DNA of 40,474 nucleotides from a virus (IMGVR_UViG_3300013767_000073:1-40474); one strand, 5' to 3'. Positions 1,914 through 40,474 are shown, numbered from the stretch's first letter. Notes: generated by a model not told the origin, from the sequence alone. A program made the numbers and translations.

Positions 1914-3592
1914 CATACGTCGACGTAGCCAACCAGTACGTCGCTGACGTCCTGGCTGGCCACGTCGTCGCATGCAAGTGGGTGCGGCTGGCCTGCGAGC
2001 GCCAGCAGCGCGACCTGGCCAGGGCAGAGCAGGGCGACCCTGCGTTCCCTTTCCGCTTCGACATCGAGGCGGCTGAGCGCATCTGCAGCTTCATCGAGCT
2101 GCTGCCGCACACCAAAGGTCGGTGGGCGCGAACGAAAGAACGCATCAAGCTGGAGCCGTGGCAGATCTTCATTCTGACCACGGTATTCGGCTGGCTGCGT
2201 ACCGAGGCTGATCTGCGCCGGTACCGTCGCGCATACGAGGAAGTCGCGCGAAAGAACGGTAAGTCGGCGAAGTCGTCGGGCATTGCCCTGTACCTGTTCG
2301 GTGCCGATAACGAGCCGGGCGCAGAGGTCTACAGCGCGGCGACCACGCGCGACCAGGCGCGCATCGTGTTCGATGACGCGCGCCGCATGGCGTTGCGTGA
2401 GCCGGAGATGTGCGAGGCGCTGGGCATCGAGGTGCTGCAGCACCAGCTGATCGTCGAGGAGGAGGCCTGCAAGTTCCTGCCGCTGTCGGCGGAAGGCAGC
2501 ACGCTGGACGGCCTAAACATTCACGGCGGCATCATCGACGAGCTGCATGCGCACAAAACGCGAGATGTGTTCGATGTGATCGACTCCGCGACCGGTGCGC
2601 GTGACCAGTCGCTGCTGTGGATGATCACCACGGCAGGTACCGACCGAACGGGCATCTGCTACGAGCAGCGCACGCACGTGACGAAGATCCTGGAGGGCGT
2701 GATCGAGGATGAGACCTTCTTCGGGATCATTTTCACGCTTGACGATGGCGATGACTGGTCTGATCCGGCTGTGTGGGGCAAGGCGAACCCGAATCTCGGT
2801 GTCTCGGTGCTGGTCGATGACATGGAGATGGCCTGCCGCAAGGCCATGTCGATGCCCAGCGCGGTGGCCAACTTCCTCACCAAGCGTCTGAACGTCTGGG
2901 TCAATGCCGATTCGGCCTGGATGGACATGCGCGCGTGGGACCGCTGCGAGAACAAAGAGCTGCGCCTGGAGGATCAGCGCGGCGAAGAGTGCTTCATCGG
3001 CCTGGATCTGGCCAGCAAGGTTGATATTGCTGCCGAGGCGCTGCTGTTCCCGCCGAGTGAGCGACATCAAAAATGGCGGCTGTTCGGAAGGTACTACCTG
3101 CCAGAGCGCGCGGTCGAGAACAGCACAAACAGCCAGTACGACGGTTGGCGCAGGCGTGGCCTGCTGACCGTGACGGATGGCGAGGTCACCGACTACGACG
3201 AGATCGAGGCGGACATCCTGGCTGACTGCTCGATGTTCGCGGTGGGCGAGGTGGCCTACGACCCATTCCAGGCGACGCAGCTGTCAGGCCACCTGGTGGC
3301 GCAGGGCGTACCGATGACCGAGATGCGGCCGACCGTGCTGAACTTCAGCGAGCCCATGAAGCAGCTCGAAGCACTGGTCCTCACGGGCCAGCTCGAGCAC
3401 AACGGCGACCCGGTCATGACCTGGATGATCAGCAACGTCGTGGCGCACCTCGACAAGAAGGACAACATCTACCCCAACAAGGAGCGCCCCGAGAACAAGA
3501 TCGACGGCCCCGTGGCCGCGATCATGGCGCTGGGGCGGGCAATCCCGACCCGGGAATCCGATGACATCGAACAAGGATTCGTAGCACTGTGA
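1910..3592 (+). CDS. terL: Terminase large subunit
   Basis: About 560 aa. ATGA overlap with the terS stop. Walker-like ARKNGKSAKSSG, IIDELHAH, and a C-terminal nuclease-like region. Position between TerS and portal fits. Confidence 0.9.
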   Translation: MTYVDVANQYVADVLAGHVVACKWVRLACERQQRDLARAEQGDPAFPFRFDIEAAERICSFIELLPHTKGRWARTKERIKLEPWQIFILTTVFGWLRTEADLRRYRRAYEEVARKNGKSAKSSGIALYLFGADNEPGAEVYSAATTRDQARIVFDDARRMALREPEMCEALGIEVLQHQLIVEEEACKFLPLSAEGSTLDGLNIHGGIIDELHAHKTRDVFDVIDSATGARDQSLLWMITTAGTDRTGICYEQRTHVTKILEGVIEDETFFGIIFTLDDGDDWSDPAVWGKANPNLGVSVLVDDMEMACRKAMSMPSAVANFLTKRLNVWVNADSAWMDMRAWDRCENKELRLEDQRGEECFIGLDLASKVDIAAEALLFPPSERHQKWRLFGRYYLPERAVENSTNSQYDGWRRRGLLTVTDGEVTDYDEIEADILADCSMFAVGEVAYDPFQATQLSGHLVAQGVPMTEMRPTVLNFSEPMKQLEALVLTGQLEHNGDPVMTWMISNVVAHLDKKDNIYPNKERPENKIDGPVAAIMALGRAIPTRESDDIEQGFVAL

Positions 3593-4866
3593 CCAATCCC
3601 AAGACATGGGCCGAGGCCTTCCCGCGTGCTGCAGCGGCGGCTGGCGGCGCCGGCGGTGCACCTGCGGTGCGTAACAGCGCGGCATGGATTCCTGCCGACA
3701 GCCAGACCTACCAGGACATTTCGTGGTGGGCACCGTCCTTTACCGGCCAGGTGGTGACCAAAGAGACCGCGATGCGCGTCTCAGCCGTCTACGCCTGCGT
3801 GCGGCTGATCTCTGGGTCGCTCGCGTCGATGCCGATCGAGGTGTACGAGCGAACAGCTGAAGGGCCGAGACTGATCGCCGATCATCCGCTCTGGTGGCTG
3901 CTAAACGAGGAGCCGACCGCGCGCTACACCGCGGCAACGGCCTCGGAGTACTCCACCAAATGCGTGCTGTTGCGGGGCGATGCCTTCCGGCAGATCAAGC
4001 GCAACCGCGCGGGCATCGTCACCGAGCTGGTGCCGCAAGACCCAGACATGACCGTCGTGGAGCGCCGCGGGGACCGCCTGGGCTACTACGTGCAGGACGG
4101 CGAAACGCGGTTCGGCCTCGACCAGGACGACATGCTCCACCTGCCGGGGTTCGGCTTCAACGGCTTGCGCAGCTTGTCTGTGATCCAGTGGGCGGCCAAG
4201 CAGTCGATTGGCATCGCCATGGCGGCCGAGGAGCATAGCGCGCGGTTCTTCAGCAACGGCGCCCAGCCGTCGTTTGTGCTGCAGGCGCCTGGGAAGATCA
4301 CGCCGGAGCAGCAGGACAGGCTGCGGCAGCAGTTTGCCGAGAAGGTGGCAGGCACGCATAACGCCTTCAAGCCGTTCGTGCTGACCGAGGGCGTCTCGGC
4401 CAAGGAAGTTTCGCTCTCCGCGCAGGACTCGCAGCTCATGGAGGCGCGCAAGTTCCAGGTGATCGATATCGCCCGGGCTTTTGGCGTGCCGCCATTCATG
4501 ATCGGCGAGATGGAAAAGACCAGCAGCTGGGGCTCTGGCGTTGCCGAGATGGCGCTGGGCTTCATGAAATACACGCTGCAGCCGTACATCACCCGCTTCG
4601 AGCAGGAGATGAACCGCAAGCTGTTCCGCACGGCCAAGTACTACCTCAAGTACGACGTGACGGGCCTGCTCCGCGGCGACGACAAGGCCCTGGCGGAATT
4701 CTTCCGGCAGGCCATCGGTGGATCTCAGGGGCCTGGATGGATGACCCGCAACGAGGTCCGCCGCAAGATGGATCTGCTGCCGAAGGAAGGTGGCGATGAA
4801 CTCTACGACCCCAACAAGGGAAACAACGATGCCAAATCATCGCAAGCTGCTGCAGCTGGCAATTGA
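3589..4866 (+). CDS. Portal protein, HK97 family
   Basis: 425 aa. GTGA overlap with terL. Sits between terminase and prohead protease. HK97-portal-like motifs (SVIQWAAKQSIG, FGVPPFMIGE). Confidence 0.85.
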   Translation: MTNPKTWAEAFPRAAAAAGGAGGAPAVRNSAAWIPADSQTYQDISWWAPSFTGQVVTKETAMRVSAVYACVRLISGSLASMPIEVYERTAEGPRLIADHPLWWLLNEEPTARYTAATASEYSTKCVLLRGDAFRQIKRNRAGIVTELVPQDPDMTVVERRGDRLGYYVQDGETRFGLDQDDMLHLPGFGFNGLRSLSVIQWAAKQSIGIAMAAEEHSARFFSNGAQPSFVLQAPGKITPEQQDRLRQQFAEKVAGTHNAFKPFVLTEGVSAKEVSLSAQDSQLMEARKFQVIDIARAFGVPPFMIGEMEKTSSWGSGVAEMALGFMKYTLQPYITRFEQEMNRKLFRTAKYYLKYDVTGLLRGDDKALAEFFRQAIGGSQGPGWMTRNEVRRKMDLLPKEGGDELYDPNKGNNDAKSSQAAAAGN

Positions 4867-5560
4867 GAACAGCAAGGCCTCTAAGGCATTCGAGGTGCGG
4901 GCCGAGAGCGGCGCCGACGAGGTGACGATCTTCCTGTACGACGTCATCGACCCCTACTGGGGTGTCGGCGCCGAGGCCTTCGCTAAGGCGCTGGCCGGCA
5001 TCACGGCCGGCACGATCCATCTGCGCGTGAACAGCCCTGGCGGCGACGTCTTCGAGGCGCGCGCCATGGTCGCAGCCATCGGCGCGCATAGCGCCCGCGT
5101 GATCGCGCATATCGACGGTCTCGCGGCCAGCGCCGCCACCTACGTGGCCATGGCGGCCGACGAGGTCCGCATCGCCGACGGGGCCTTCATGATGGTCCAC
5201 CAGGCGTGGACCTTCGCCATGGGCAATGCCGTCGACCTGCGCACGCAGGCGGACCTGCTCGACAAGGTCGACGCCTCGATCGTTGCGGACTATGCCCGCA
5301 AGACCGGCAAGGACGCCGAGCAGATTGGCCAGTGGATGGCCGACGAAACCTGGTTCACGGCAGCGGAAGCAGTCGAGAACGGCTTCGCGGACACCGTCGT
5401 GCAGAACGACAAGGGCGCCGGCGGCGGTGATGGCGCGCAGAACCGCTGGACCCTGTCGGCCTACCAGAAAGTCCCGCAGGCGCTGACCGCGCCGCCGGAA
5501 CCCGATCTCAGCAGCGCGGCGCGCACCCGCATGATCGCGCTGCTGGAACGCGTCGGTTAG
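4829..5560 (+). CDS. Prohead (head maturation) protease, ClpP/S49-like
   Basis: LRVNSPGGDVFEARAMVAAI ... GLAASAATYVAMAADEV ... FMMVHQAW matches the ClpP-type serine protease core. In-frame ATG at 4829. Confidence 0.85.
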   Translation: MPNHRKLLQLAIENSKASKAFEVRAESGADEVTIFLYDVIDPYWGVGAEAFAKALAGITAGTIHLRVNSPGGDVFEARAMVAAIGAHSARVIAHIDGLAASAATYVAMAADEVRIADGAFMMVHQAWTFAMGNAVDLRTQADLLDKVDASIVADYARKTGKDAEQIGQWMADETWFTAAEAVENGFADTVVQNDKGAGGGDGAQNRWTLSAYQKVPQALTAPPEPDLSSAARTRMIALLERVG

Positions 5561-5581
5561 CGCTCCCGCTGCCGATTAACG

Positions 5582-5604
5582 AGCCGCCTCCGGGCGGCTT
5601 TTTC
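5582..5604 (+). terminator. Stem-loop or attenuating terminator between protease and capsid genes
   Basis: agccgcc (5582-88), loop tccg, ggcggct (5593-99), then ttttcattt. Confidence 0.5.
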
Positions 5605-5637
5605 ATTTGCACCCTTCCTTGAGAGGAAATATCACCT

Positions 5638-6858
5638 ATGTCTCTGCAAGCCCTGCGGGAGCGCCGTAACTCCCTCGTTCAGCAAGCCAAGCACCTCAAC
5701 GCCGAGCACGGCGAAAAGTGGACCACGGAGATCCAGGCCAAGTACGATGCGCTGGTCACCGAGATTGGCGCCATCGACGACAACATCGCGCGCCAGCAGA
5801 GGCTGCTCGACCTGGAGGCCGATCGCGCCTTCGAGAACATGACGCAGCGGCCTGGCTCTCCGGCTGGTCAGGGCGATGATCCGAATGCCAAGAACCAGTA
5901 TTCGCGCTTCCTTCGCATCGGCATGCATGCCCTGACCGCCGAAGAGCACCAGGTCATCCGCAACACCATGTCAGTGGGCGGCGCCGGCAGCGAGGGCGGC
6001 TACACGGTCCAGACCGACGTCGCGAAAACTGTCGCCGAGGCCCTGAAGAAGTACGGCGGCATGCGACAGGTAGCGGAGGTCATCCAGACTGCGCAAGGGA
6101 ACACGATCAACTACCCGACCTCGGACGGTACGTCGGAAGAAGGGGAGATCATCGGCGAGAACTCGGCGGCGTCTAACCAGGATCCCTCCTTTGGCTTCAA
6201 GCCGCTTGGGGTGTACAAGTACAGCTCCAAGGTTATCGCCGTGCCACTCGAACTGCTGCAGGACTCAGCGATCGACGTTGAATCCTTCGTCAATGCACGA
6301 ATCGTGACGCGCCTGGGGCGGATCACGAACAAGCACTTCACGGTCGGTACGGGTGTCGGCCAGCCGACTGGCATCGTGACGGCCACCAGCGCCGGCCGTG
6401 TCGGTTCGGCCGGCCAGACGCTGAGCGTCACCTATGACGACCTGGTCGAGCTGCAGCATTCGGTCGATCCGGCCTACCGCGAGGCGGGGAACACCAGCTT
6501 CATGATGCACGACACTTCGGTCAAGGTCGTGCGCAAGCTGAAGGACGGCAATGGTCGTCCGCTGTGGGTGCCGGACTTCGATCAGGGCATCTCGCTGGGC
6601 ATGGGCGGCACGCTGGCCGGCTCCCCCGTCACGGTCAATCAGCACATGCCGGTGATGGCGGCCAATGCCTCGTCGATTCTGTTTGGCGACTACAGTCACT
6701 ACAAGATCCGCGACGTGATGGCGATCACGCTGTTCCGCTTCACCGACTCGGTCTACACGACCAAGGGGCAGGTCGGCTTCCTGGCCTGGATGCGCTCCGG
6801 CGGCAACTACGTCGACGTGGGTGGCGCGGTCAAGGCCTACCAGAACTCGGCCACCTGA
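5638..6858 (+). CDS. Major capsid protein, HK97 family
   Basis: 406 aa with a coiled N-terminal delta-like region. Lies directly after the protease. RBS gagagg upstream. Confidence 0.9.
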   Translation: MSLQALRERRNSLVQQAKHLNAEHGEKWTTEIQAKYDALVTEIGAIDDNIARQQRLLDLEADRAFENMTQRPGSPAGQGDDPNAKNQYSRFLRIGMHALTAEEHQVIRNTMSVGGAGSEGGYTVQTDVAKTVAEALKKYGGMRQVAEVIQTAQGNTINYPTSDGTSEEGEIIGENSAASNQDPSFGFKPLGVYKYSSKVIAVPLELLQDSAIDVESFVNARIVTRLGRITNKHFTVGTGVGQPTGIVTATSAGRVGSAGQTLSVTYDDLVELQHSVDPAYREAGNTSFMMHDTSVKVVRKLKDGNGRPLWVPDFDQGISLGMGGTLAGSPVTVNQHMPVMAANASSILFGDYSHYKIRDVMAITLFRFTDSVYTTKGQVGFLAWMRSGGNYVDVGGAVKAYQNSAT

Positions 6859-17955: not shown

Positions 17956-20538
17956 ATGGAAACCACGAAGGACTATCTCGCGGCACTTGACCGCATCTAC
18001 GCGACTGGCATCAAGTACAAGGCCATCACGGAAGGGCCGGTCAGTGGCCCCGAGAGTGTGGTTCAAACGGCCAGAGGGCCGGTCAAGACGCTGGCGCGGA
18101 TTGTGAGCGAGGTGCCCAGCGCCCAGGCGGATCGGGCGAGTGCGGAGGTTGCTGCCGCGGCCGCCGTGGCGCAGGCTGGCAACGCCTCCGAGAGTGCAGC
18201 CGCAGCACAGGCTGCGAGGGCCGCTGCCGAGCTGGCGCGCGATGCGTCGTTTGCGCAGGGGAAAAAGTACGTGGACGAGCCGACTGGTCGCGCCAGCGTG
18301 GCCGACGGGGAGGCCTTCCTGGTACAGGGGGCAGGGGATATCGCGGCCTTTGAATATCGCCGAGTCAGCGCTAGCGCTTCCACGCTGATCGCGCTCTACC
18401 CAAGCGCTGGCTCGGTTCAGCAACTTCGCACCGATCTTGAGACACGAGTGACCCAGCAAGAGATCATGGATCCCACCATCGTTGGTGCCGAAACGGACCC
18501 TGATGGAAATGCCGTCACTCTCACGCACACTGACGGGACGAAGGAGATTCCGAAGGCTAAGCTTGGCACGGCCACGGCGACGAAGTTCTATCCCATCTCC
18601 ATCGAGGACGATGCCACGGACACCTATTCTGGGTCGGCTATCGGTTACGAGCGTGTCTTCACGGATCCGGCTGGCTTCATGTCTCTGGGTTTCCGGTCGG
18701 ACGGTGCGGTGGAGATTCCCAAGCTGATTACCCCAGGGCTGGGCGCGGCGTGGAACACCTTCGGCTTGGGCGATGCTGATTCCGTTGCGTTCGTCGGCGA
18801 CAGCTACACCGCAAGCCATTACACGGTCAAGGACAAGGCCTACATTTCGCGCCTGTCATCGCTCACCGGCTACCGTTGCCGCAACTTCGGCATCTCGGGG
18901 AATGACGCGCTCGACATGAACTACCGCATCATCACCGATGCGGTGTACCCGGACGGTGCGTACTTTTCGGCAATGCGGGCGCGCTTCGTCTGCATCCTGA
19001 GCTACACGAACGATACGGACTTCCGTGGGGCGGATCTGACGATGTACCAGCGCAACATTGAGCGCCTTGTCGAAACGGTGATCGCCAGCGGCGCCGAGCC
19101 TATCCTGTGCAGCGAGTTCCCCGCCACGACCACGACCTACGCGATCCTGCGCAACATCGCGGACCGCTACGGCATCCGGTTTGTCGATGTGGCGTCGCTG
19201 AACTACGAGTGGGGGAACCTGCAGCTTGGCCCCTTTTTCCAAGGCCACCCGGGCACGCGCACGAATGCGGTCTTCTGGTACAACCTGTACGAGACGTTCC
19301 GCGCGCTGCCGAAGCCGGATCGCGGCATCAAGATCTACCGACGTCGCGCCGGCTTCGCGGTGTCGGCCATCTCCGACCTGCTGTTCTCGTCGGTGGTGGA
19401 CAAGCAAGCACGATTCAAGGAGCTGACGGTTTCGCACTACCGGCTCACGGATACTCAGCTGCCGCGATATGACGAGTTGAACAGTGGTATCAGTTGGTCT
19501 TTCACCCTGGAGTCCGACGAGTACTCCAAGATCGAAAGCGGTGCGGGAGTGGCGATCAGCGACTATGCGCTGGTGGAGGTCACGCTGCCGGGCACTGCGC
19601 GGACGATCGACCAGGTGATGCTGACGCTCGGTCTTCCGTCCGGCGTGCAGGTGTATGTGCGTGACTACCAAGACGTGGCGTCGTCGCCCGTTGGCAAGTC
19701 GCAAGGGGCATCCCCGACGCAGCCGGACTACCTGTCGAAGTGGAACAAATCGCGTGGCGCGTGGCGCTCGCTCGGCCAGTACTCGGCGCCCATCACCATG
19801 GCCAAGGTCAACCTGCGGAACTCCATGCGGGGCGACCGGATGGAGTTGCTGCTGTACAAGAGCAGCGGGTTCAGCATCACCGCGTGCCAGGTCGGATACC
19901 AGGGGGCAGGAGGGAAGGAGCCCAACCTGCGCACCACGCCGCCGCGTCTTCTCGACACGCAGCTCTTGCCCGCCCCCACCGTTTCTGCAGCCGATCTGAC
20001 CGCCGCGTGGACTGTGACCGGCGCGCCGGCAACGCTGGTGCCGATCGACAACGTCAACTCCCCGCGCAATCCGGCGAACACGGCGTCGCCGGTGTCGGCT
20101 GTCTGCGTGCTCACGGCGACCGATATGATCGGGCGCAGCCTGACGCTGGCTACGCCTGGTCTTGCCGGCAAGCGCTATGCCGTGACTGTGTATGCGCGGT
20201 ACTTCCCGAAGGCGTTCGTGGATCGCTCCAACCCGCTGTATTCCAGCCTGGACTCCGCCCAGGTGATCGATCGCATCGCCAATCCCTCTTCGGCGCCGAT
20301 CGATGCGGACTCGCACGACTTTCGCACGCTGCGCATGGAGTACGCCTTCGCGGCGAGCATCGATCCAACGGTGGGGGGCGGGGAGTTGGATGAGTTTGCC
20401 TCGCTCTATTGGCGACCGGTCGTCTTCTATGTGGACATGCCGCCGGCACCGCTCGGGACTGGAGCGTTCAGCTTCCGGCTGTCGTGCCCGGACGGTGAGA
20501 TTCAAGTGGCAAAGGTACTGATTCAGGAGGTCAAGTAA
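17956..20538 (+). CDS. Tail fibre / tailspike with SGNH (GDSL) hydrolase-like domain
   Basis: 860 aa. Ala-rich fibre-like N-terminus. Contains VAFVGDSYTASHY ... NFGISGNDALD (blocks I and II of SGNH esterases). Confidence 0.7.
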   Translation: METTKDYLAALDRIYATGIKYKAITEGPVSGPESVVQTARGPVKTLARIVSEVPSAQADRASAEVAAAAAVAQAGNASESAAAAQAARAAAELARDASFAQGKKYVDEPTGRASVADGEAFLVQGAGDIAAFEYRRVSASASTLIALYPSAGSVQQLRTDLETRVTQQEIMDPTIVGAETDPDGNAVTLTHTDGTKEIPKAKLGTATATKFYPISIEDDATDTYSGSAIGYERVFTDPAGFMSLGFRSDGAVEIPKLITPGLGAAWNTFGLGDADSVAFVGDSYTASHYTVKDKAYISRLSSLTGYRCRNFGISGNDALDMNYRIITDAVYPDGAYFSAMRARFVCILSYTNDTDFRGADLTMYQRNIERLVETVIASGAEPILCSEFPATTTTYAILRNIADRYGIRFVDVASLNYEWGNLQLGPFFQGHPGTRTNAVFWYNLYETFRALPKPDRGIKIYRRRAGFAVSAISDLLFSSVVDKQARFKELTVSHYRLTDTQLPRYDELNSGISWSFTLESDEYSKIESGAGVAISDYALVEVTLPGTARTIDQVMLTLGLPSGVQVYVRDYQDVASSPVGKSQGASPTQPDYLSKWNKSRGAWRSLGQYSAPITMAKVNLRNSMRGDRMELLLYKSSGFSITACQVGYQGAGGKEPNLRTTPPRLLDTQLLPAPTVSAADLTAAWTVTGAPATLVPIDNVNSPRNPANTASPVSAVCVLTATDMIGRSLTLATPGLAGKRYAVTVYARYFPKAFVDRSNPLYSSLDSAQVIDRIANPSSAPIDADSHDFRTLRMEYAFAASIDPTVGGGELDEFASLYWRPVVFYVDMPPAPLGTGAFSFRLSCPDGEIQVAKVLIQEVK

Positions 20539-23780: not shown

Positions 23781-23838
23781 CATAACATAACATTCATAAC
23801 ATAACGAAACGTAACGTTACGGAGAGAAAATGTTATGG
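23781..23838. promoter_or_regulatory. Repeat-rich kfrA promoter/operator region
   Basis: cataacataac at 23781-91 and 23795-805. 12-bp palindrome cgtaacgttacg at 23810-21. Inverted atgttatg overlaps the kfrA start. Confidence 0.5.
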
Positions 23839-24872
23839 CACGCGAAGCCAGCATCACGCAGGAACAGGTCAACGCCGCCGCCGACGCGCTGCGGGCGTCT
23901 GGCGCCAAGCCCACGGTGCGCGCGGTGCGCGAGCGCCTGGGCAACACGGGCTCGAATGCCACGGTCATGCGCCTGCTCGCGGTCTGGCAGGGCGGCCAAG
24001 TAAAACCCGCTGAGACGCCGATCACGCTGCCGGCGACACTGCAGCGCGCGCTGGTCGACTACGTGGGCCAGGCCGTGGCTGAAGGCAAGGCGGAACTGGC
24101 GGCGGATCTCGCTGAACTGCAGCAGGTCAACGCGGATCTGGCCAGCGAGAGCGAGCGCCAGGCAGCGGCGATCGAGTCCCTGGAGAGCGAGCGCGATGCG
24201 GTGCAGTCGGAGCGCGATGCGCTCGCCGGCCGCGTGCAGCAGCTCGAGGCCGACCAGGTCGTGCTGCGCGGCGAGGTCGAGCAGGAGCGGGCTGCGGCCG
24301 AGGGCGCGCGCACGGCCCTGGCCAAGGCCGAGCTGCGCCTGGAGGCGATGCCGCGGCTGGTCGAGGATCTCGCAGCCGTGCGGGTCGAGGTCGAGCGGGA
24401 GCGGTCGGGTCGGATTGCCGCCGAGCAGGCTGCCGCGGTGGCGAGCGCGCGCCTCGAGGCGGAGGCGGTCGCCCTGATGCGGGCCGAGAAGGCGCTGGAG
24501 GCCGTGCCGCAGCTGGAGGCGGCACTGTCGGCGGTGCGGGCCGAGCTGGAGGCCGAGCGCGCGAGCCGGGCCGCCGCCGAGCAAGCGGTCGCCGTCGCGC
24601 AGGCTGCGGTCGTGCACGTCGAGGGCGAGCTGGCCACGGTGCGCGCCGCCGGCGAGAAGGCGGAGGCCAAGGCGGAAAAGCTCCGCGGCGAACTCCAGGC
24701 CAAGGTCTATGAGCTGAGCGAGGCCGTGCACACGCAGCAGGCCGCCACCTACGAGGCCAACGCGAAGTGGTCGGCGGCGGAGTACCAGCTGCGGCACGCG
24801 CAGGAAGCGCTGGCGGCGGCCGAGCGGGCCGCGCCGGCGGAGAAGCCCGCCACGCCGGCTAAAAAGCGCTAG
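23835..24872 (+). CDS. kfrA: KfrA-like plasmid DNA-binding coiled-coil protein
   Basis: The N-terminus ITQEQVNAAADALRASGAKPTVRAVRERLGNTGSNATVMRLLAVW matches the KfrA_N domain. The remainder is a long Ala/Glu/Leu coiled coil. Confidence 0.75.
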   Translation: MAREASITQEQVNAAADALRASGAKPTVRAVRERLGNTGSNATVMRLLAVWQGGQVKPAETPITLPATLQRALVDYVGQAVAEGKAELAADLAELQQVNADLASESERQAAAIESLESERDAVQSERDALAGRVQQLEADQVVLRGEVEQERAAAEGARTALAKAELRLEAMPRLVEDLAAVRVEVERERSGRIAAEQAAAVASARLEAEAVALMRAEKALEAVPQLEAALSAVRAELEAERASRAAAEQAVAVAQAAVVHVEGELATVRAAGEKAEAKAEKLRGELQAKVYELSEAVHTQQAATYEANAKWSAAEYQLRHAQEALAAAERAAPAEKPATPAKKR

Positions 24873-24889
24873 GCTGGGAGGACGGCCCC

Positions 24890-25120
24890 ATGATCAGGAT
24901 CTCGACGTGTCCCACGCCCTGCGACTGTCTGAACGATTGCGGCGACGATCCGCGCCTGGGCGCGTGTCAGGTCACCAAGTGCGCCGCCGCGATTGCTCGG
25001 GAGGCGGGCCGGCGGGCCGCCGCCTGGCAGCGCTGCGAGGCGTGGCTGGCGACGCTGCCGGCGGAGGTGGACCGCGCCAGTGCCCGCCTGGGCTGGCACG
25101 CAGCGCTGCGTCGCCGGTGA
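24890..25120 (+). CDS. Hypothetical Cys-rich small protein
   Basis: 76 aa ORF, 18 nt after kfrA. CPTPCDCLNDCGDD...C..TKC. Confidence 0.4.
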   Translation: MIRISTCPTPCDCLNDCGDDPRLGACQVTKCAAAIAREAGRRAAAWQRCEAWLATLPAEVDRASARLGWHAALRRR

Positions 25121-25259
25121 TGGTTATGCCGTTTTGACATAACGATTATTATGCGCGTATATGGCGTATTGATCACATTACTGATGTGATCCGATGCCAA
25201 GTTCATCGTCGAGGCGATGGGCTTCCTGTTGGCGGTCCTGCCAGAGCTGATCAAGTTTG

Positions 25260-25997
25260 TCAAATTGGCAGTCGCTGCTGAGGGTCCTTTGCGAAGCGGA
25301 ATTCGAGGCCTACCACCTTGCGCCCTGCTCGCCTGGTATCCCACTCGATCAAAAGTCCGTTCTTCTCTTTCAGGTCGCGCAGCGCTGGCTCGATCACGCG
25401 CGTCCGCAGTTCCTTGAAGTTCTTTACATAGGCCTCTGGCACTTCCATGCTGTGCGTGAATTCCTCAATCGTCGGGCTATACCGCCCTGCTGCTTCCCAC
25501 GACTTTAGGCACTCGAACAGTCTCCAGGTGTAGACCGAACGGAAGTCGGCTGCCTGGCGCAACTTGTAGGAAAGAAACTCCCGGCGCAAGCCAAACAAGT
25601 GCGGCGCCACCGAGCTGGTCCACACTAGTTCGATCCAGCCCTCCCCTTTGTGGTACTTCCGATATTCGACCCACCGATACTTTGTGTCTTCCGGACCCTT
25701 CGGTGTCATTTCCACGGTGCGGATGTAGCGGTCAAAGATCCGTTCGGCTGCGGCTTCCATCTGCTCGTAAGCGCTGGTCATGTCCAGGCCAAAGGTCTCC
25801 GCATAGTCCTTGGCATGTAGGCGTGTACGCAGCGCTGACTTTGACAGCACCAAAGGCACTGAATCGCCCTGGGCTATGCAGCAAGAGATGACGCGCTTCT
25901 CCGGTAGCGACAGGCCGTGGGCTGCCCGAACAAGGGCGTTGCTCATGTTGACGTTCAGCTCGGCAATCGGCTGACCGGGTTTCGGTGGTTTCGACAT
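25260..25997 (-). CDS. repA: Iteron-type plasmid replication initiator (Rep_3 family)
   Basis: NMSNALVRAAHGLSLPEKRVISCCIA ... FLSYKLRQAADFRSVYTWRLFECLKSW ... GRKVVGLEFRF is typical of Rep_3 winged-helix initiators. Iterons lie upstream. Confidence 0.85.
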   Translation of the reverse strand: MSKPPKPGQPIAELNVNMSNALVRAAHGLSLPEKRVISCCIAQGDSVPLVLSKSALRTRLHAKDYAETFGLDMTSAYEQMEAAAERIFDRYIRTVEMTPKGPEDTKYRWVEYRKYHKGEGWIELVWTSSVAPHLFGLRREFLSYKLRQAADFRSVYTWRLFECLKSWEAAGRYSPTIEEFTHSMEVPEAYVKNFKELRTRVIEPALRDLKEKNGLLIEWDTRRAGRKVVGLEFRFAKDPQQRLPI

Positions 25998-26003
25998 ATG
26001 TCG

Positions 26004-26022
26004 TATTGGGGCAAGGACCGGG
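26004..26022. promoter_or_regulatory. Inverted iteron copy abutting the repA start (autorepression operator)
   Basis: tattggggcaaggaccggg is the exact reverse complement of iterons 3 and 4. A partial second copy, tattggggc, lies at 26024-32. Confidence 0.65.
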
Positions 26023-26133
26023 TTATTGGGGCGTCGTCGGATGGTATGCCATAAATGGCGTCATCCAAAGTAGCGAGTAGTTCATTCTGTTGCAGCCTTC
26101 TGTGGACAACTAAGCAATGTGCCGACTGGCCGA

Positions 26134-26216
26134 CCCGGTCTTTGCCCCATTAGCCCGGTCTTTGCCCCATTGGAACCCGGTCCTTGCCCCAATAGAGCCC
26201 GGTCCTTGCCCCAATA
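26134..26216. repeat. oriV iterons: four direct repeats spaced 20-22 bp
   Basis: cccggtctttgccccatt at 26134 and 26154. cccggtccttgccccaata at 26176 and 26198. Confidence 0.85.
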
Positions 26217-26256
26217 GAAGCCCGCAAAGCCTTATCTGGCGCGGCTTTTCGGTGGG

Positions 26257-26297
26257 CTAAAACGAAGTAAAACGGGGTTAAAACGTATATAAAAACC
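26257..26297. other. AT-rich candidate DNA-unwinding element of oriV
   Basis: taaaacg at 26258, 26268 and 26279 (10-11 bp phasing), then tatataaaaa. Confidence 0.55.
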
Positions 26298-26304
26298 GGG
26301 GGGA

Positions 26305-26313
26305 TGTGGATAA
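26305..26313 (-). promoter_or_regulatory. DnaA box (perfect TTATCCACA on the minus strand)
   Basis: tgtggataa at 26305-13. Weaker matches: tgtggacaa at 26101-09 and tgtggacag at 26361-69. Confidence 0.65.
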
Positions 26314-26486
26314 CCCGCCTGTGGTCCGCAAGGCAGTGGACATCCCGCTGTGCGGGACCGTGTGGACAGCAGCGGACAGCCTGAACGGCTGCCCTCTTCC
26401 TGACCACACTTGCCCACAGCAGCTGTTGGTATGCAAGCGACCGGCACGACTAAGATTAGAAAAAGATCAAGGGACCAAGCCCTACC

Positions 26487-27521
26487 TTAGGTCGGCTCGT
26501 CCAGCTCGAGCTGGTGCTTCATGCTGGCTACGTAGGCCTCACGCTTGGCGGCGTCGTCAAAGGTCATGTCAAGGGTCACGCGGCCGTTGTCCCATTCCTT
26601 GAGCGTGCCCACCGCCTGGCCATCGCGCATGATCTTGTACTGGCGGGACGTGTTGCGCCGGGCCTTGGCGCCCTCCTCCGCTTTCTTGCGGATGGCTTCC
26701 ACCTTCTTGAAGGAAAGCTCCTCCTCAACAATTCGCTTGGCCAATTCTGTGGTTCTCGCCTCACCGGCCGCCTTGTTAAGCAGTGTCAGCTCATAGCCGA
26801 TGTTGTAGCCGAACGCTTCGGGCGTTTCGATGATGACGTCTAGCACTGACTGTGGCAGACCGGTGAGCGCCAGCATCTTGTTGATCTTGGACTTGCTCTC
26901 TCCGACGATTGGGATGAGGTCCTCTTCGGTGCGGGCAATGCCGGCATCGAGGAGTTGGCGATAGGAGAAGGCAACGTCGAGGAACGTCTCTTGCTCGCGC
27001 TCGTTGTTGAGCGTATGCGCGAGTCGGTAGAAGTCGATGGGCGATAGTCCGTCCAGCACCCAGCAGGACATCTCCGGGCGTCCAAGGTGCAACGTGGCCC
27101 GCTTCCGATAGTGTCCGTCGATCAGTTGGTAGCGCCCAGGCTGCTTGGGGTGCGGTGCGACGAAGGCTGGCACCAGTTGCCCATCGGCTTTGATCGAGTT
27201 GGCACGAGCCTTGATCTTTTCCTCGTTATAGAACTTGCGGCTATTGAGCGGGTTGTCATCAATCAGGTCGATCTGGATGGAGGCCTGGCGGCGCGTGGCC
27301 TTCCCTTCCTTCACCAATGTTTCTACGTAGAAACCAGCCTCCCCTTCCCGTTCTTGGCTCGATTCCGGGTCGGATTGATGCGGCTGCAGGAGGCTATCGC
27401 GGCCGTCCATGGCAGTGGCCACATTGTCGAACCGACTCAGGGTAGCGCTGCGCATCTGTTGGTCCCGTGCCTCGCCGTCCTGGAGGGCGCTAAGGAAATT
27501 TTTCTTGGCCTTAGTCGCCAT
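26487..27521 (-). CDS. parB: ParB-family partition protein
   Basis: IDLIDDNPLNSRKFY ... IKADGQLVPAFVAPHPKQPGRYQLIDGHYRKRA is the ParB N-terminal domain. Lies directly downstream of parA. Confidence 0.85.
   Translation of the reverse strand: MATKAKKNFLSALQDGEARDQQMRSATLSRFDNVATAMDGRDSLLQPHQSDPESSQEREGEAGFYVETLVKEGKATRRQASIQIDLIDDNPLNSRKFYNEEKIKARANSIKADGQLVPAFVAPHPKQPGRYQLIDGHYRKRATLHLGRPEMSCWVLDGLSPIDFYRLAHTLNNEREQETFLDVAFSYRQLLDAGIARTEEDLIPIVGESKSKINKMLALTGLPQSVLDVIIETPEAFGYNIGYELTLLNKAAGEARTTELAKRIVEEELSFKKVEAIRKKAEEGAKARRNTSRQYKIMRDGQAVGTLKEWDNGRVTLDMTFDDAAKREAYVASMKHQLELDEPT
27319..27334. promoter_or_regulatory. parS-like palindrome inside parB
   Basis: gtttctacgtagaaac, a perfect 16-bp palindrome. 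Confidence 0.55.
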
Positions 27522-27523
27522 GT

Positions 27524-28180
27524 TTAGGCTCCAATGATTTCAAGGACTTCATCGACAAGGGCGTTCACTTCCTTCTTTGCCTCGCGAGCGCTTGAACTCA
27601 TGGCCACGACAGGCATGCCGGTTGCCTCGGCCTCCGGATAAGCAGCGCGATCCCCCAGGCTGCTAGCGCACAGCGGGAACTCCTCGTCTTGCCCAAGGGC
27701 TTCAAAGACGTTCTTGCTGATCGTTCGATTCTTCGTTTGGTTCGCGATGGTTCTTACCTGTAGGGTCGCGTTCTGTACCTGTGCTCGCCTGGCCAGATTC
27801 TTCGCTTCCTTCACGGCCCAGAAGTTGCCGGCTGACCCGACTACGGGGATCAGGCCTAGGTCGGAGACCAGCAGCGCGACGGATGGCGCGGCAGACTGGA
27901 TTGCTGGAGGGCAGTCGATAACGATGAAGTCGTAGTCGTCAACGAACTTCCGGATCTCCCTGTCAGGGTGAGGATGAACAGCGAGTGGGAAGACGGTCGC
28001 GGGGAATGGGTTGCTTTCTGTGGCTGCCCCTACTGAGAGGGCGGCAGTTCCCTGCCCGTCGAGATCGACCAGGGCAACTTTGTGGCCACGGTGTCCAAGT
28101 GCCCCTGCGAGGCACAAAGACACAGTGGTCTTTCCTGCGCCGCCCTTCTGATTGAAAACGGTAACGATCTTTGCAGTCAT
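27524..28180 (-). CDS. parA: ParA partition ATPase
   Basis: IVTVFNQKGGAGKTTVSLCLAGAL is the deviant Walker A. Also VALVDLDGQG and IVIDCPP. Confidence 0.9.
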   Translation of the reverse strand: MTAKIVTVFNQKGGAGKTTVSLCLAGALGHRGHKVALVDLDGQGTAALSVGAATESNPFPATVFPLAVHPHPDREIRKFVDDYDFIVIDCPPAIQSAAPSVALLVSDLGLIPVVGSAGNFWAVKEAKNLARRAQVQNATLQVRTIANQTKNRTISKNVFEALGQDEEFPLCASSLGDRAAYPEAEATGMPVVAMSSSAREAKKEVNALVDEVLEIIGA

Positions 28181-28596: not shown

Positions 28597-29841
28597 CTAG
28601 AAGAGCACCATCTGGCGCGGGGTGATGGCAGGAGCGGGCTCGGTATTGGCGGCTTTGGGTATAGGCTCGGTGGCCAGTCGCCGGTATATCTTGGTGAGGC
28701 TCGAGTCCACGGTGTGGCCGCGGCGGCGAGCAATGTTGGCGAGCTGCGCCTGGTCATGGTGGCTTCCTGTGGCTTGGCGCAGTAGCCCGAGGTAGCTGTT
28801 GGCGCTGGTGAAGACCTCGGCAGCCGGCATTCGCTCGAGGCGGTGTGCTGCCGCCTGGACTGTTCGCCGGCGCGTGGTGCGCACCCATGGTCTGATTACT
28901 TGGCCAACGAAGTCGACGCCGCGCGCAACCGGCTGCAGGATGGTCTTGGCCGGATTCAACTGTGCACCGAGCCGTCGTGGTAGGAATGCCGTGATGTCTT
29001 TCAGTGCGGCGTTCAACCACTGGGGCGATTCATGTAGCAGCACGAAATCGTCGACGTAGCGGATGTAGTGCCGGCACCTGATTTTGTGCTTCACGTGCTG
29101 ATCCAGCGTGTCCAGGTGGACATTGGCAAAGAACTGGCTGCTCAGATTCCCGATCGGTAGGCCTCGATGAGCCGGCTGATTCAGAAGGCTCTTGTGCGCG
29201 GGCACACGCGCCATCAGCTCGCGTGGGCTGTGGAACTGGGCGCCGGGGCGAGGGTCGTGCATTAGCACTACGTCGACCAGCCACATCCACCAGGGCTCCG
29301 TCACGCGCGCGGCCAGCTGCTCGCGTAGGACGTTCTTGTCGATGCTGACGAAGAAGTTCGCCAGATCGCATTTCAGGTAGAAGGCTGGCCTTGCCCAATT
29401 CTGGGTGATGCTGCGGATCTTTGCCTCGAGGCGCTGGGCTGCGTACAGCGTGCCGCGGCCTGGGATGCATGCGCAGCTGTCGGCGACGAATGCAGCGTGG
29501 AAGCGTGACGCGATGCGGTTGTACAGCAGGTGATGGACCACCCGATCGCGGAAGTCGGCTGCCCAGACCTCGCGCACCTTAGGCCGGGTGACGACGAAGC
29601 AGATTGAGCGGCCCGGCCGATAGCAGCCGTCGACCAGATCACGGTGCAGCTGTGTCAGGTTGCGCTCGAGCCGCTGCTCGAAGCGAAGGGCGCTGTGTGT
29701 GCCGCGTTTGTGTCGACGGCAGTCGAAGTAAGCCGCGACGAGTTCCTCGAAAGAAAAGTCAGCATGGGCCGGTACGGCTTGATCTGCGGACGGCGCGCGC
29801 GCGGTACTCGTTACCCTTGTGGTTGTAGTTCTGATTGCCAT
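28597..29841 (-). CDS. DGR reverse transcriptase
   Basis: LPIGNLSSQFFANVHL (the DGR-specific [ILV]GxxxSQ motif) and RYVDDFVLL (YxDD). The only in-frame canonical start near the conserved N-terminus is the ATG at 29841, inside the TR. Confidence 0.9.
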   Translation of the reverse strand: MAIRTTTTRVTSTARAPSADQAVPAHADFSFEELVAAYFDCRRHKRGTHSALRFEQRLERNLTQLHRDLVDGCYRPGRSICFVVTRPKVREVWAADFRDRVVHHLLYNRIASRFHAAFVADSCACIPGRGTLYAAQRLEAKIRSITQNWARPAFYLKCDLANFFVSIDKNVLREQLAARVTEPWWMWLVDVVLMHDPRPGAQFHSPRELMARVPAHKSLLNQPAHRGLPIGNLSSQFFANVHLDTLDQHVKHKIRCRHYIRYVDDFVLLHESPQWLNAALKDITAFLPRRLGAQLNPAKTILQPVARGVDFVGQVIRPWVRTTRRRTVQAAAHRLERMPAAEVFTSANSYLGLLRQATGSHHDQAQLANIARRRGHTVDSSLTKIYRRLATEPIPKAANTEPAPAITPRQMVLF

Positions 29842-29890
29842 TGCCGAAGTTCTGGATCCAGGCGTTGTTGGAGTTCTCCGCGTGCTGCGT
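29781..29890 (-). repeat. DGR template repeat (TR)
   Basis: Aligns to both VRs. On the coding strand it reads ...AEN SNN AWI QNF GNG NQN YNH KGN EYR ARA VRR, with 9 Asn codons (7 AAC, 2 AAT). GC-only stretch at the 3' end. Confidence 0.9.
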
Positions 29891-30061
29891 CGAGTCGTGC
29901 TATCCACGTCGCCTCGCCGAAGGCTTGCGCCGATCGGCGGGGAAACTGCGCTGGACCAGACCCGGGCGAACCCGGCGGTATCCTCATTGCGCCTGTCGGT
30001 GGCCACGCATGGCCAGCGGCACGACCAGATAAAGATCGCACGGGCCTGATCGCCTTGACGA

Positions 30062-30418
30062 TCAGGCAGCAGGCGACGATGCGGAGTGCTTGCGCCAACC
30101 ATGGCCTTGTTTGCTTACGCTGCTGGTGAGTTGGATTGCCTGGGCGTACTGCTTAGTCGAAATGAACTGCATATCGCGCGAGAGGCGGAGCAGCAGTTCG
30201 ACCACTTGCACGCGCTCGAGCAAATCGCTGATGTGCGGCACCTTGTCCCGCGCCACGTTGGCCCGGAAGATCAGCACGACGATGGCCAGGGCCTCGTCGC
30301 GGATCCGGCCGCCGAGCGATAGCTTGAAATCGCGCGGCATGTTGCGGGTCAGGGCCGTCACGTCACGAAACAGGTCGTACGCGACTTTGTAGATGGCCAG
30401 GTCAGTATGAAGCGCCAT
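30062..30418 (-). CDS. avd: Accessory variability determinant (Avd, four-helix-bundle protein)
   Basis: 118 aa. LAIYKVAYDLFRDVTALTRNMPRDFKLSLGGRIRDEAL is typical of the Avd / 23S-IVS four-helix-bundle family. Lies between the target gene and TR. Confidence 0.85.
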   Translation of the reverse strand: MALHTDLAIYKVAYDLFRDVTALTRNMPRDFKLSLGGRIRDEALAIVVLIFRANVARDKVPHISDLLERVQVVELLLRLSRDMQFISTKQYAQAIQLTSSVSKQGHGWRKHSASSPAA

Positions 30419-30434
30419 GCTGAAAAAAATCGTG

Positions 30435-30450
30435 GGCCGCTTACGCGGCC
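30435..30450 (-). promoter_or_regulatory. GC hairpin downstream of VR1 (DGR target-recognition hairpin / terminator)
   Basis: ggccgc-ttac-gcggcc. On the minus strand it is followed by cacgattttttt. Confidence 0.6.
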
Positions 30451-30471
30451 GAATTGAGAAGGACTAAATGA

Positions 30472-30963
30472 CTAAATGGGAGATCTGCGGACGGCGCGCG
30501 CGCGGGACTCGTGACCCTTGTGGCTGCAGACCTGAATGCCATTGCCGAAGTCCTGGACCCAGGCGCTGAGGGAGTACTCCGCGCGCTGCTCGTTGGACCA
30601 ATACCAGGTGCGCTCGAATTCTTCGGGAAGATTGGCGTAGAGCAGCGCCTGCTCTCGCCGAGTTGGCAGCTCGCCGCCGATCGATGCGGCCCAGTCCTTA
30701 GCTGCACTCCATTCCATCTTGCCGGGGTCGGCTGGAAGCAGGACCAGGTGGCAGTCAGGGGCGCCGTCCTTGCTCAGTAGGATGCCGGCATAGCGCTCAC
30801 CTTCGGCGAGGATAGGGCGAATCCCCTGGGCGATGTGGTTTTTGATCACGACGGGATGCTTTTCGATCAGGCTGGCCAGCCAGGCCTTCATGACCGATTG
30901 CGCGGGAATGGTGACCTTGGCCTCTCCGACTTGGAAGGTCACGTTCTCAGCAACTTGCGACAT
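30472..30963 (-). CDS. DGR target protein 1 (DUF1566 / C-type-lectin-fold-like)
   Basis: 163 aa. MEWSAAKDWAASIGGELPTRREQALLY ... YWSNEQRAEYSLSAWVQDFGNGIQVCSHKGHESRARAVRR. VR at the 3' end. Confidence 0.85.
   Translation of the reverse strand: MSQVAENVTFQVGEAKVTIPAQSVMKAWLASLIEKHPVVIKNHIAQGIRPILAEGERYAGILLSKDGAPDCHLVLLPADPGKMEWSAAKDWAASIGGELPTRREQALLYANLPEEFERTWYWSNEQRAEYSLSAWVQDFGNGIQVCSHKGHESRARAVRRSPI
30482..30589 (-). repeat. Variable repeat 1 (VR1)
   Basis: 108-bp alignment to TR 29781-29888 with 14 mismatches. Every mismatch is at a TR plus-strand T (an A on the coding strand). Confidence 0.9.
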
Positions 30964-30998
30964 AGGGTGTGCTCCTGAAATGGTGAAAAATCGCGCGG

Positions 30999-31016
30999 GG
31001 GCCGCTGACGCGGCCC
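30999..31016 (-). promoter_or_regulatory. GC hairpin downstream of VR2
   Basis: gggccgc-tgac-gcggccc. Same core as the VR1 hairpin. Confidence 0.6.
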
Positions 31017-31035
31017 TAATAGATAAAGGGGTGAA

Positions 31036-31692
31036 TTACTGAATCACCAGCATGCTGCGGACGGCGCGCGCGCGGTACTCGAGACCCTTGTGGTAGTAGT
31101 CCTGATCGCCACCGCCGAAGTCCTGGACCCAGGCGTCGTGGGAGTACTCCGCGTGCCGCGTGGAAGTCCAGTAGTAGCCCTCCGCGAAGGCCTCCGCGGC
31201 ACCGGTCTGGAAGATCTCGGCAGCCGTCTGGGCGGGGAAGTCCTCGGTGTATGGGTATCCGACCGGCACGCTGCTGGGGTTATCACCGTCGCGATAGCTT
31301 GCGTAGTTCCCCTCGGTGGGCTTCAGGTTGCGATAGACGAGCTCCTGCTCGTCGCGGGCCGGCAGGTACCAGTCGTGGAAGCCGTTAAGCTGCAGGCCGA
31401 GTGCCCACATGGCGATGTCGCTGCCTGCGCCGGCCATGGCCTTGGTGTTGGCGCGGCCGTCGAAATAGCTCATCGCACCGTCTACGCTTAGCATCGACGA
31501 GTTCCAGATTGTGGGCTCGTGCTCGCCACCGTCTTTCGGTGCGACGACCAGCACGTGGATGCCATCGTCCTTGCGGACCTGGCCGGCGTAGAAGCCGCCG
31601 CCGAGCGGCTGGCCGATCTGCAGCGCAGCGGCTGCGGCCTGGGTGATAGCGCTATGGATGACTTGCATTTCGACTGCGGTGATGGCGGTCAT
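31036..31692 (-). CDS. DGR target protein 2 (DUF1566 / C-type-lectin-fold-like)
   Basis: 218 aa. GGGFYAGQV...HVLVVAPKD ... DWYLPARDEQELVY ... YYWTSTRHAEYSHDAWVQDFGGGDQDYYHKGLEYRARAVR. VR at the 3' end. Confidence 0.85.
   Translation of the reverse strand: MTAITAVEMQVIHSAITQAAAAALQIGQPLGGGFYAGQVRKDDGIHVLVVAPKDGGEHEPTIWNSSMLSVDGAMSYFDGRANTKAMAGAGSDIAMWALGLQLNGFHDWYLPARDEQELVYRNLKPTEGNYASYRDGDNPSSVPVGYPYTEDFPAQTAAEIFQTGAAEAFAEGYYWTSTRHAEYSHDAWVQDFGGGDQDYYHKGLEYRARAVRSMLVIQ
31055..31161 (-). repeat. Variable repeat 2 (VR2)
   Basis: 107-bp alignment to TR 29784-29890 with 13 mismatches, all at TR plus-strand T. Confidence 0.9.
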
Positions 31693-39915: not shown

Positions 39916-40371
39916 ATGGGTCTGATCGGCAGGTTTATCGGATGGTGGCGCGGGCGCGCCGCGAGCGCGGCAACTGTGAAAGGCGGTCGTGTCTCGCCTC
40001 AGATGCCGCCGCGGCGAATGCCGACGCGGAATGTTCCGCCGCGTCCGAATCCTCGATCGCCGGCGTTGGCGGCGTTCGCTGCAGCGCCTCGGCCGTCGCG
40101 TGTTGCGCGTGAGCTGGTGGAACGCGATCGGCGCGAGGCCTTGGCACGCGAGTGGCGCCAGCAGGTGGCGGCGCCGGCCTCGAGCGAGGGGATGTCGATG
40201 CTGCCGGCGGCGATGCTGCTCGCCGCGGAGAGCGGTGAGGGCGTCGCGGCTGACGAGGGGTCGTTCGGGTTGCGTGGTGTGTGTGGTGGTGGCTCGTTTG
40301 ATGGTGGCGGCGCATCGGGCAGCTGGGATGGTGGCGGGTCAAGCGGCGACTCGGCTTCGTCGTCGGACTGA
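39916..40371 (+). CDS. Hypothetical protein with Pro/Arg-rich centre and Gly/Ser-rich tail
   Basis: In-frame ATG at 39916 (MGLIGRFIGWW...) lies after the terminator. The C-terminus lies in the terminal repeat. Confidence 0.5.
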   Translation: MGLIGRFIGWWRGRAASAATVKGGRVSPQMPPRRMPTRNVPPRPNPRSPALAAFAAAPRPSRVARELVERDRREALAREWRQQVAAPASSEGMSMLPAAMLLAAESGEGVAADEGSFGLRGVCGGGSFDGGGASGSWDGGGSSGDSASSSD

Positions 40372-40474
40372 AGGTGTCTCCTTCCCTGCCTCGCGAGCGG
40401 TCGCTTGGCAGGGCTTCGTCGGGCCGGTGCATGGCGGTGCATCGGCCCGATTTTCTTTTTCTTCCTGGTCTGCA
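40348..40474. repeat. Terminal direct repeat, copy 2
   Basis: Exact copy of 1..127. Confidence 0.95.

Follow-up and report, generated by a model that had tools for sequence, protein, structure and literature searches.

The question raised by positions 28597-31692 (minus strand) of the viral contig IMGVR_UViG_3300013767_000073:1-40474, which was analysed over its whole length of 40,474 nucleotides and is referred to here as the window, is whether the reverse transcriptase (RT) gene and the repeats found there make up a complete diversity-generating retroelement (DGR) and, if so, how the synthesis of its cDNA is organised. An earlier note, made from the sequence alone, had described a DGR in the canonical order target 2, target 1, avd, template repeat (TR) and RT. 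This order was confirmed and was also the modal layout among 160 related loci. The identification was likewise upheld: each defining part, i.e. the RT, the Avd protein, the TR, two variable repeats (VR1 and VR2) and the lectin-fold targets, was tested and found. With a probability of about 0.9, we read the stretch as a complete DGR of the avd-TR-RT type in a temperate phage. The note had not seen a structured RNA (Rfam RT-15) between avd and the TR, an RT start codon within the TR, or the phage-plasmid context of the element. The element is ordinary in kind, as the DGR classes of Wu et al. 2018 (PMC5758913) and the genome announcement of Burkholderia phage Magia (PMC7883833), which reports a DGR in that phage, already cover such elements. 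It is one further member of an abundant, already recognised phage and prophage lineage with DUF1566-type targets and leaves the principle of DGRs unchanged; the less ordinary feature is a conserved structured RNA before the template and not after it.

A direct repeat was present in three copies (29784-29893, 30485-30594 and 31055-31164) that shared 83% and 87% identity. The copies were aligned without gaps on the minus (coding) strand and the significance of the mismatches was calculated with the hypergeometric test; realignment returned the boundaries previously given for the TR, VR1 and VR2 (Table 1). VR1 aligned to TR positions 29781-29888 with 14 mismatches over 108 nucleotides, all at TR adenines (P = 3.4e-9), and VR2 aligned to positions 29784-29890 with 13 mismatches over 107 nucleotides, again all at TR adenines (P = 1.9e-8). 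This recount agreed with the earlier one: 27 of 27 mismatches fell on TR adenines and none elsewhere in the blocks. The TR block contains 32 adenines and the combined P of the adenine-only pattern over both VRs was about 6e-17. Over slightly wider blocks, which add one A>G just beyond the VR1 block, the substitutions were A>G (16), A>T (7) and A>C (5). Mismatches at other bases began directly outside the blocks, at 29889 and 29891-29893 for VR1 and at 29891 and from 29894 onward for VR2, so that about 75 non-A positions in each VR without a single mismatch were flanked by fully diverged sequence. As the two targets could be aligned only over their last 62 amino acids (45% identity), this absence of non-A mismatches argues for recent homing.

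In the frame of the targets the TR encodes nine asparagine codons (seven AAC and two AAT), the same count as was made before. The TR codons upstream of its A-free stretch hold 31 adenines, corresponding to about 10^18.7 DNA and 10^18.3 protein variants. The 3′-end of the TR, which resembles an initiation of mutagenic homing (IMH) sequence, was common to the TR and both VRs and was not mutagenised. In 275 VRs of the related loci, adenines in this IMH-like zone were changed in 0-11% compared to 35-75% further upstream. Both VRs end 10-19 nucleotides before the stop codons of their targets. A BLAST search and an A-masked regular expression of the TR revealed no copies in the 40-kb window other than VR1 and VR2.

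Translation of the RT gene confirmed the motifs RGLPIGNLSSQ, which contains the DGR signature [I/V]GxxxSQ, and YVDD, and the protein matched Pfam RVT_1 (2.4e-15). When the RT was compared with all PDB sequences, the best match was chain 8ub7_A (E 3.6e-33), a 328-amino-acid reverse transcriptase from a nine-entry series; the next was a group II intron maturase (3.9e-9). Chain 8ub7_A is taken to be the bRT of the cryo-electron microscopy (cryo-EM) study of phage BPP-1, and its length fits the 987-nucleotide brt gene of that phage. The claim that this is an RT of the DGR kind, and not of the retron or group II intron kind, thus gained a best solved-structure match that leads by 24 orders of magnitude.

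To judge from the reading frame, the most likely start of the RT is the ATG inside the TR (29841-29839). A longer open reading frame (ORF) of 501 amino acids (28597-30102) was set aside as a mechanical reading only because it runs through both the TR and the structured RNA. After the ATG at 30102, the sole in-frame ATG before the conserved RT N-terminus is that at 29841, and no in-frame GTG or TTG was seen after 29841 on reading the sequence. Gene calling done independently on an identical Logan contig likewise gave 414 amino acids. An in-frame start within the TR was present in 131 of 152 related loci, and in loci L020, L024, L027-L029, L032, L041, L036, L010 and L011 the frame opens merely 33-84 nucleotides upstream, so the start inside the TR is the only possible one there. 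In phage Magia (locus L001), the annotated RT coding sequence (4955-6238) opens ahead of the TR and takes in part of that phage's RT-15 RNA (6141-6323); as with the 501-amino-acid ORF, its deposited start probably lies too far upstream. An 87-amino-acid ORF that follows the RT was considered as an additional accessory gene and rejected, being present in just one of 160 relatives.

The earlier assignment of the 118-amino-acid protein to Avd held, with 43.5 bits against a cut-off of 40 for the Pfam model bAvd; a sequence search of the PDB gave no significant match for it. Both targets are, on their AlphaFold (AF2) models, small lectin-fold proteins of the Lcl_C/DUF1566 C-type-lectin-like kind. 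The shared C-terminal scaffold previously described, AWVQDFG....HKG.E.RARAVR, was found in both translations. Target 2 matched Pfam PF07603 (Lcl_C/DUF1566) with 40.2 bits (cut-off 34.9); target 1 reached 23.6 bits with Lcl_C, under the cut-off, and its homologues carry PF07603. The models were built on 45 homologues for target 2 and 42 for target 1, with predicted local distance difference test (pLDDT) values of 91.4 and 88.5 respectively. The Foldseek top PDB match of both was 8q4e_A, the C-terminal domain of Legionella Lcl (target 2: E 4e-4, target-normalised template modelling (TM) score 0.66; target 1: E 7.6e-5, target-normalised TM score 0.67), and for target 1 dozens of C-type lectin domains came next, with probability 1.0, in line with the C-type lectin (CLec)/DUF1566 type first suggested. 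Among predicted viral structures, target 2 matched standalone DUF1566 phage proteins as well as the C-termini of tail-fibre, S74-peptidase and collagen-repeat proteins, while a sequence search of the PDB with target 2 gave no significant match. Its closest homologues were Cupriavidus DUF1566 proteins (66% identity). No signal peptide or lipobox was evident in either target when read by eye.

The RT as query returned 374 contigs from viruses and 206 from genomes, the nearest relatives being those of Cupriavidus (75-79% identity) and then those of Janthinobacterium, Paraburkholderia, Massilia, Pseudomonas and others; relatives number in the hundreds, in prophages of Burkholderiales and Pseudomonas, and nearly all have one to four VRs, mostly two. 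A TR/VR finder run on the 160 fetched loci, with the window counted and two loci having too little upstream sequence, gave two VRs in 95 loci, three in 29, one in 24, four in 4 and none in 7. Over the 160 related loci, 3994 of 4148 mismatches (96.3%) were at TR adenines. Each of the two target types has homologues of its N-terminal part among the loci, in 69 and 96 of them; relatives do not have the flanking genes in common, which indicates that the cassette moves as a module. Three single cases stood out. The VRs of L059 (IMGVR_UViG_3300025621_001498; 3553-3657 and 4254-4358) showed only 2 and 5 mismatches to the TR, mostly at non-A positions, and may have been recently reset, or the element may be inactive. 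L100 and L101 are two copies of this DGR type 62 kb apart on one contig (CBIHRA010000002.1) of a Burkholderiaceae metagenome-assembled genome. Two VRs of L150 have the same base at each of their 14 co-mutated sites, which points to a target having been duplicated recently.

The 171 nucleotides between the avd stop codon and the TR are not a plain spacer but the RT-15 RNA (RF03018), an Rfam family without an assigned function that is here tied firmly to one DGR lineage. The match covered the full length of the model (positions 1-192 of 192), and RT-15 was the only family returned by the Rfam scan of the window, with no intron or retron RNA family. A scan of 13 related loci, those of phages Magia and LPPA56 among them, found the RNA in every one. 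When 60 relatives of <85% shared identity were aligned, 25 of 34 predicted pairs showed compensatory changes; 96.9% of cells were paired compared to 88.9% in shuffles, none of 500 being as high, and to ≤52% when partners were slid. The 5′ hairpin of RT-15 overlaps the avd stop codon, and its three-hairpin junction is closed by a helix (30019-30024/29895-29900) that ends 1-4 nucleotides before the TR/VR homology. The spacing between this 3′ helix and the TR start is tight across the family, and in each of the five cases compared (L005, L020, L036, L061 and the window) the end of the RNA coincided with the TR start or came within a few nucleotides of it. RNAalifold applied to the 60 relatives revealed no conserved structure after the TR (0-4 pairs, energy about 0); the sequence there is conserved with codon periodicity. 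A spacer RNA after the TR like that of BPP-1 was looked for and rejected, as Rfam RF03022, with which BPP-1 itself scores 104.7 bits, was unmatched in the window at E ≤ 1 and only those 0-4 consensus pairs were predicted. In the literature searched, no mention of the RT-15 RNA or RF03018 was found; Weinberg et al. 2017 treated the membership of other RT motifs in DGRs as speculation only.

By analogy with BPP-1, we infer that RT-15 is this lineage's equivalent of the BPP-1 spacer RNA, acting as a ribonucleoprotein (RNP) scaffold, as the stop for the cDNA and possibly as the primer. In the cryo-EM study the BPP-1 spacer gives the primer strand (Sp47-56 pairs with TR118-127, and A56 primes at G117), Avd- and RT-binding stem-loops, and a stop duplex with the 3′ segment of avd. 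Here, RT-Avd would bind a transcript that runs from the avd 3′-end through RT-15 and the TR into the beginning of the RT gene, and the TR would be reverse-transcribed with misincorporation opposite adenines. The cDNA would then replace the homologous 3′-ends of the two tandem target genes, recoding about 20 codons at their presumed ligand-binding faces and retaining the A-free 3′ segment and the scaffold codons. A candidate primer strand lies in the near-invariant single-stranded AAUCUG (30026-30031), directly 5′ of the RT-15 closing helix. Its AUCUG is complementary to a near-invariant CAGAU (29782-29786) that ends the TR right after the 19-nucleotide A-free run, and the four pairs proximal to the putative start were intact in 133 of 147 loci. 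This pairing, as a hypothesis, would set the primer nucleotide beside the first templated G, and the closing helix just upstream of the TR would stop the cDNA. Among the 275 VRs, adenines at least 25 nucleotides upstream of CAGAU were changed in 35-75% and the two adenines of CAGAU in 2% and 11%; this low rate fits a cDNA that starts from the G immediately preceding CAGAU, which would then be the counterpart of G117 in BPP-1. A compensatory change, AUCCG in the RNA with CGGAU at the TR end, was found in L152 and L081, and a scan for the AUCCG pattern added L200 and L253; the four are probably one subclade and so amount to about one evolutionary event. The ACCUG scan gave L524 (ACCUG with CAUGU), which is partly compensated only, and L161 of the family set has ACCUG with an uncompensated CAGCU. 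Scans for AUUUG and GUCUG added no further covariation, most matches of the pattern scans being due to chance, and the bases that precede AUCUG and follow CAGAU showed no correlation of the kind that a sixth pair would give. Taken with the RT start inside the template, it is possible, and proposed here tentatively, that a cis-acting RNA organises cDNA synthesis from the 5′ side of the template, in a circularly permuted, retron-like form of the BPP-1 RNP topology.

A simpler reading, which we consider unlikely, is that RT-15 stands outside the DGR machinery and regulates RT expression in cis, as a 5′ leader or attenuator that happens to adjoin the TR. Its position in the 5′ untranslated region of the RT mRNA would suit such a role, and the AUCUG:CAGAU pairing is short, with at least one proximal pair missing without compensation in 14 of 147 loci and with the uncompensated case of L161. 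Against a leader stand a closing helix that ends a few nucleotides from the TR/VR homology boundary throughout the family, and the overlap of the 5′ hairpin with the 3′-end of avd, the segment that is the essential upstream RNA in BPP-1. Additionally, there is no alternative structured RNA downstream of the TR, and one clean compensatory change backs the pairing.

Several observations weigh against the reading of the whole stretch as a complete, working DGR. The NCBIfam model DivGenRetAVD gave Avd 52.8 bits, under its cut-off of 80. All six TR adenines mutated in both VRs (29875, 29869, 29857, 29851, 29830 and 29812) carry the identical substitution in VR1 and VR2, so the two may not be fully independent records of homing. 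In the family the mean agreement at co-mutated sites was 43% and complete agreement was seen in only 3 of 165 VR pairs; the agreement here suggests a shared history or shared or convergent selection. All four DGR proteins were singleton clusters in a collection of 15 billion proteins, and the sole other contig carrying them, found by exact look-up in Logan, was 100% identical to the window. The GC-rich hairpins after the two VRs resemble DGR target hairpins and equally intrinsic terminators, the first sitting 17 nucleotides ahead of the avd ATG. The published target signal (Guo 2011) is a GC-rich hairpin or cruciform with a four-nucleotide GRNA loop shortly past the VR; the loops found here, GTAA and GTCA, do not fit this consensus, and strong hairpins were absent past most family VRs, so that the family does not support them as a conserved target signal. 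Were the two hairpins to terminate transcription, expression of avd-TR-RT would need read-through or antitermination. The lack of available population variants leaves room for a fossil, in which the adenine-only differences record past retrohoming by an element that no longer works, and the six shared sites could go back to an old event with duplication or gene conversion after it. Such a fossil is nevertheless highly improbable, as the reading frames of the RT, Avd and the two targets are unbroken, YVDD and IGNLSSQ are kept, RT-15 is full-length at 179.6 bits, the VRs remain free of non-A mismatches between fully diverged flanks, and VR1 and VR2 differ at 15 further A sites. There is next to no chance that the RT instead derives from a retron, a group II intron or a defence RT system and that the repeats are merely paralogous gene ends: NCBIfam, in which no DGR RT model was reached, gave group II intron, retron and Drt models as top matches, all far below their cut-offs, and some GenBank relatives carry the label 'retron-type', but the lead of the BPP-1 bRT among PDB matches, the adjoining avd gene, the IGxxxSQ motif, the adenine-only mismatches and the Rfam scan all argue for a DGR. 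The complete DGR is therefore preferred; it is apparently intact and, to judge from its intact parts and clean VRs, may well be active today.

Table 1. Coordinates of the DGR, its RNA and repeats, and of other genes in the window.
Feature	Position	Strand	Description
RT	28597-29841	-	DGR reverse transcriptase, 414 amino acids; most likely start, ATG 29841-29839, inside TR
TR	29781-29890	-	Template repeat; matches 3′-ends of two tandem genes
IMH-like segment of TR	29781-29804	-	19-nucleotide A-free GC-rich run (29786-29804), then AGATC
RT-15 RNA	29888-30078	-	Rfam RF03018; 179.6 bits, gathering score 82, E 7e-45
AUCUG of RT-15	30026-30030	-	Candidate primer strand; near-invariant, single-stranded
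avd	30062-30418	-	Accessory variability determinant, 118 amino acids; Pfam bAvd PF22296
Hairpin after VR1	30435-30450	-	GC-rich, 6-bp stem, loop GTAA, then T7; 31 nucleotides past VR1; dG -13.6
Target 1	30472-30963	-	163 amino acids; predicted short N-terminal beta-hairpin/helix, linker, C-type-lectin-like domain
VR1	30482-30589	-	Variable repeat at 3′-end of target 1, from alignment to TR
Hairpin after VR2	30999-31016	-	GC-rich, 7-bp stem, loop GTCA, then T-run; 38 nucleotides past VR2; dG -16.8
Target 2	31036-31692	-	218 amino acids; essentially one predicted Lcl_C/DUF1566 C-type-lectin-like domain
VR2	31055-31161	-	Variable repeat at 3′-end of target 2, from alignment to TR
Acb2/Tad1 hairpin-domain ORF	27-509	+	160 amino acids; Pfam PF24729, 62.5 bits, cut-off 27
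GDSL/SGNH protein	17956-20538	+	860 amino acids, after J-like tail gene; lipase-esterase domain, Pfam 33.3 bits, cut-off 32.9
KfrA_N	23835-24872	+	Plasmid module
Rep3/RepM-like initiator	25260-25997	-	Plasmid module
ParB	26487-27521	-	Plasmid module
ParA	27524-28180	-	Plasmid module

Nucleotides 1-127 of the window were exactly repeated at 40348-40474, and this terminal direct repeat shows the assembly to be circular and the genome, at about 40,347 bp, to be complete. It encodes TerS, TerL, a portal, a major capsid protein, a tape measure and a J-like tail protein, together with a GH19 endolysin, a holin, and CI-like and CII-like regulators. Adjoining the DGR on its downstream side is a plasmid maintenance module (23835-28180). 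Roughly 40 ORFs, with the small ones covered in part, were scanned and no integrase was found. On account of this module and of the integrase scan, the circular genome of ~40.3 kb is best read, from its gene content, as that of a temperate siphovirus-like phage-plasmid, with Cupriavidus or one of its relatives within the Burkholderiaceae as the probable host. The DGR shares its strand with the leftward early genes, the structural genes being on the other strand, and no tail gene has a VR. Nor does the DGR target the 860-amino-acid GDSL protein, probably a tail fibre or spike that bears a deacetylase-type domain. The only diversified genes of a complete phage genome are thus two small early-operon lectin-fold proteins and no tail genes, which raises the question of what such phages gain from diversifying them. 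Elsewhere, the 160-amino-acid ORF with an Acb2/Tad1 hairpin domain is a candidate anti-CBASS/anti-Thoeris signal sponge.

Among known systems, the element falls within the classes of Wu et al. 2018 (PMC5758913), where DUF1566 targets form CLec2 (category d), about half of them short proteins of DUF1566 alone, two-target cassettes account for 13% of DGRs, and avd-TR-RT is architecture B. The VRs of the Legionella pneumophila DGR (CLec2) likewise lie in DUF1566/Lcl_C lectin domains, and Lcl was the best structural match of both targets; LdtA of Legionella, however, is a lipoprotein of the cell surface and is encoded by an integrative conjugative element, whereas the targets described here are carried by a phage-plasmid.

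The closest annotated relative is Burkholderia phage Magia (NC_070954; PMC7883833), with 67% nucleotide identity over RT-avd-target, the same cassette in the same orientation, and RT-15; related DGRs are annotated in vB_PL1 and further phages as well. In Magia, as in Pseudomonas phage LPPA56 and Burkholderia phages vB_PL1 and vB_E192a, the cassette is distal in the early-left operon and adjoins the lysogeny module. Magia is an integrating myophage with an integrase, whereas the window appears to be a siphovirus-like phage-plasmid; in Magia and LPPA56 the integrase occupies the position at which Rep3, ParAB and KfrA are found here. The genes flanking the cassette also differ between Magia and the window.

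In the msr-msd RNA of retrons, a structured RNA bearing the primer lies 5′ of the template and the a1/a2 repeats bring the primer to the template end. If the AUCUG:CAGAU pairing is real, the primer strand would lie 5′ of the template here as well, the reverse of BPP-1, and a short duplex of the far 5′ segment with the sequence immediately 3′ of the template would carry the primer to the template end. The likeness would be one of topology only, as there is no relation in sequence or family, the RT here belongs to the DGR clade, and the product would be a homing cDNA and not multicopy single-stranded DNA (msDNA).

BPP-1, the prototype (mtd-avd-TR-brt), has the same target-avd-TR-RT order, an Avd and the best solved-structure match of the RT; it likewise shows adenine-specific differences, a VR at the 3′-end of a lectin-fold target and a GC-rich unmutated 3′ segment. 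Its single DGR target, the tail-fibre protein Mtd, belongs to the Mtd lectin class and is a product of the tail module, whereas the two targets here are small DUF1566-class proteins of an early operon. In BPP-1 the TR follows avd directly (gap 0) and a structured spacer of 144 nucleotides separates the TR from brt. This spacer is Rfam RF03022 (Phage_DGR, formerly RT-10), which is absent here and seems to correspond to the RT-10 of Weinberg et al. 2017, located by them in the TR-brt gap. By contrast, in the window 171 nucleotides of RT-15, which is another family, precede the TR, the RT ORF starts inside the TR, and no structure follows it. The cryo-EM work found a putative Avd-binding stem-loop just downstream of the TR in 207 of 278 Avd-type DGRs; the RT-15 lineage would fall in the remainder. 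The structured accessory RNA lies upstream of the template here and downstream of it in BPP-1, the only mechanistically solved DGR, and the RT-15 lineage thus offers a concrete and cheap test of how general the cis-priming architecture of BPP-1 is.

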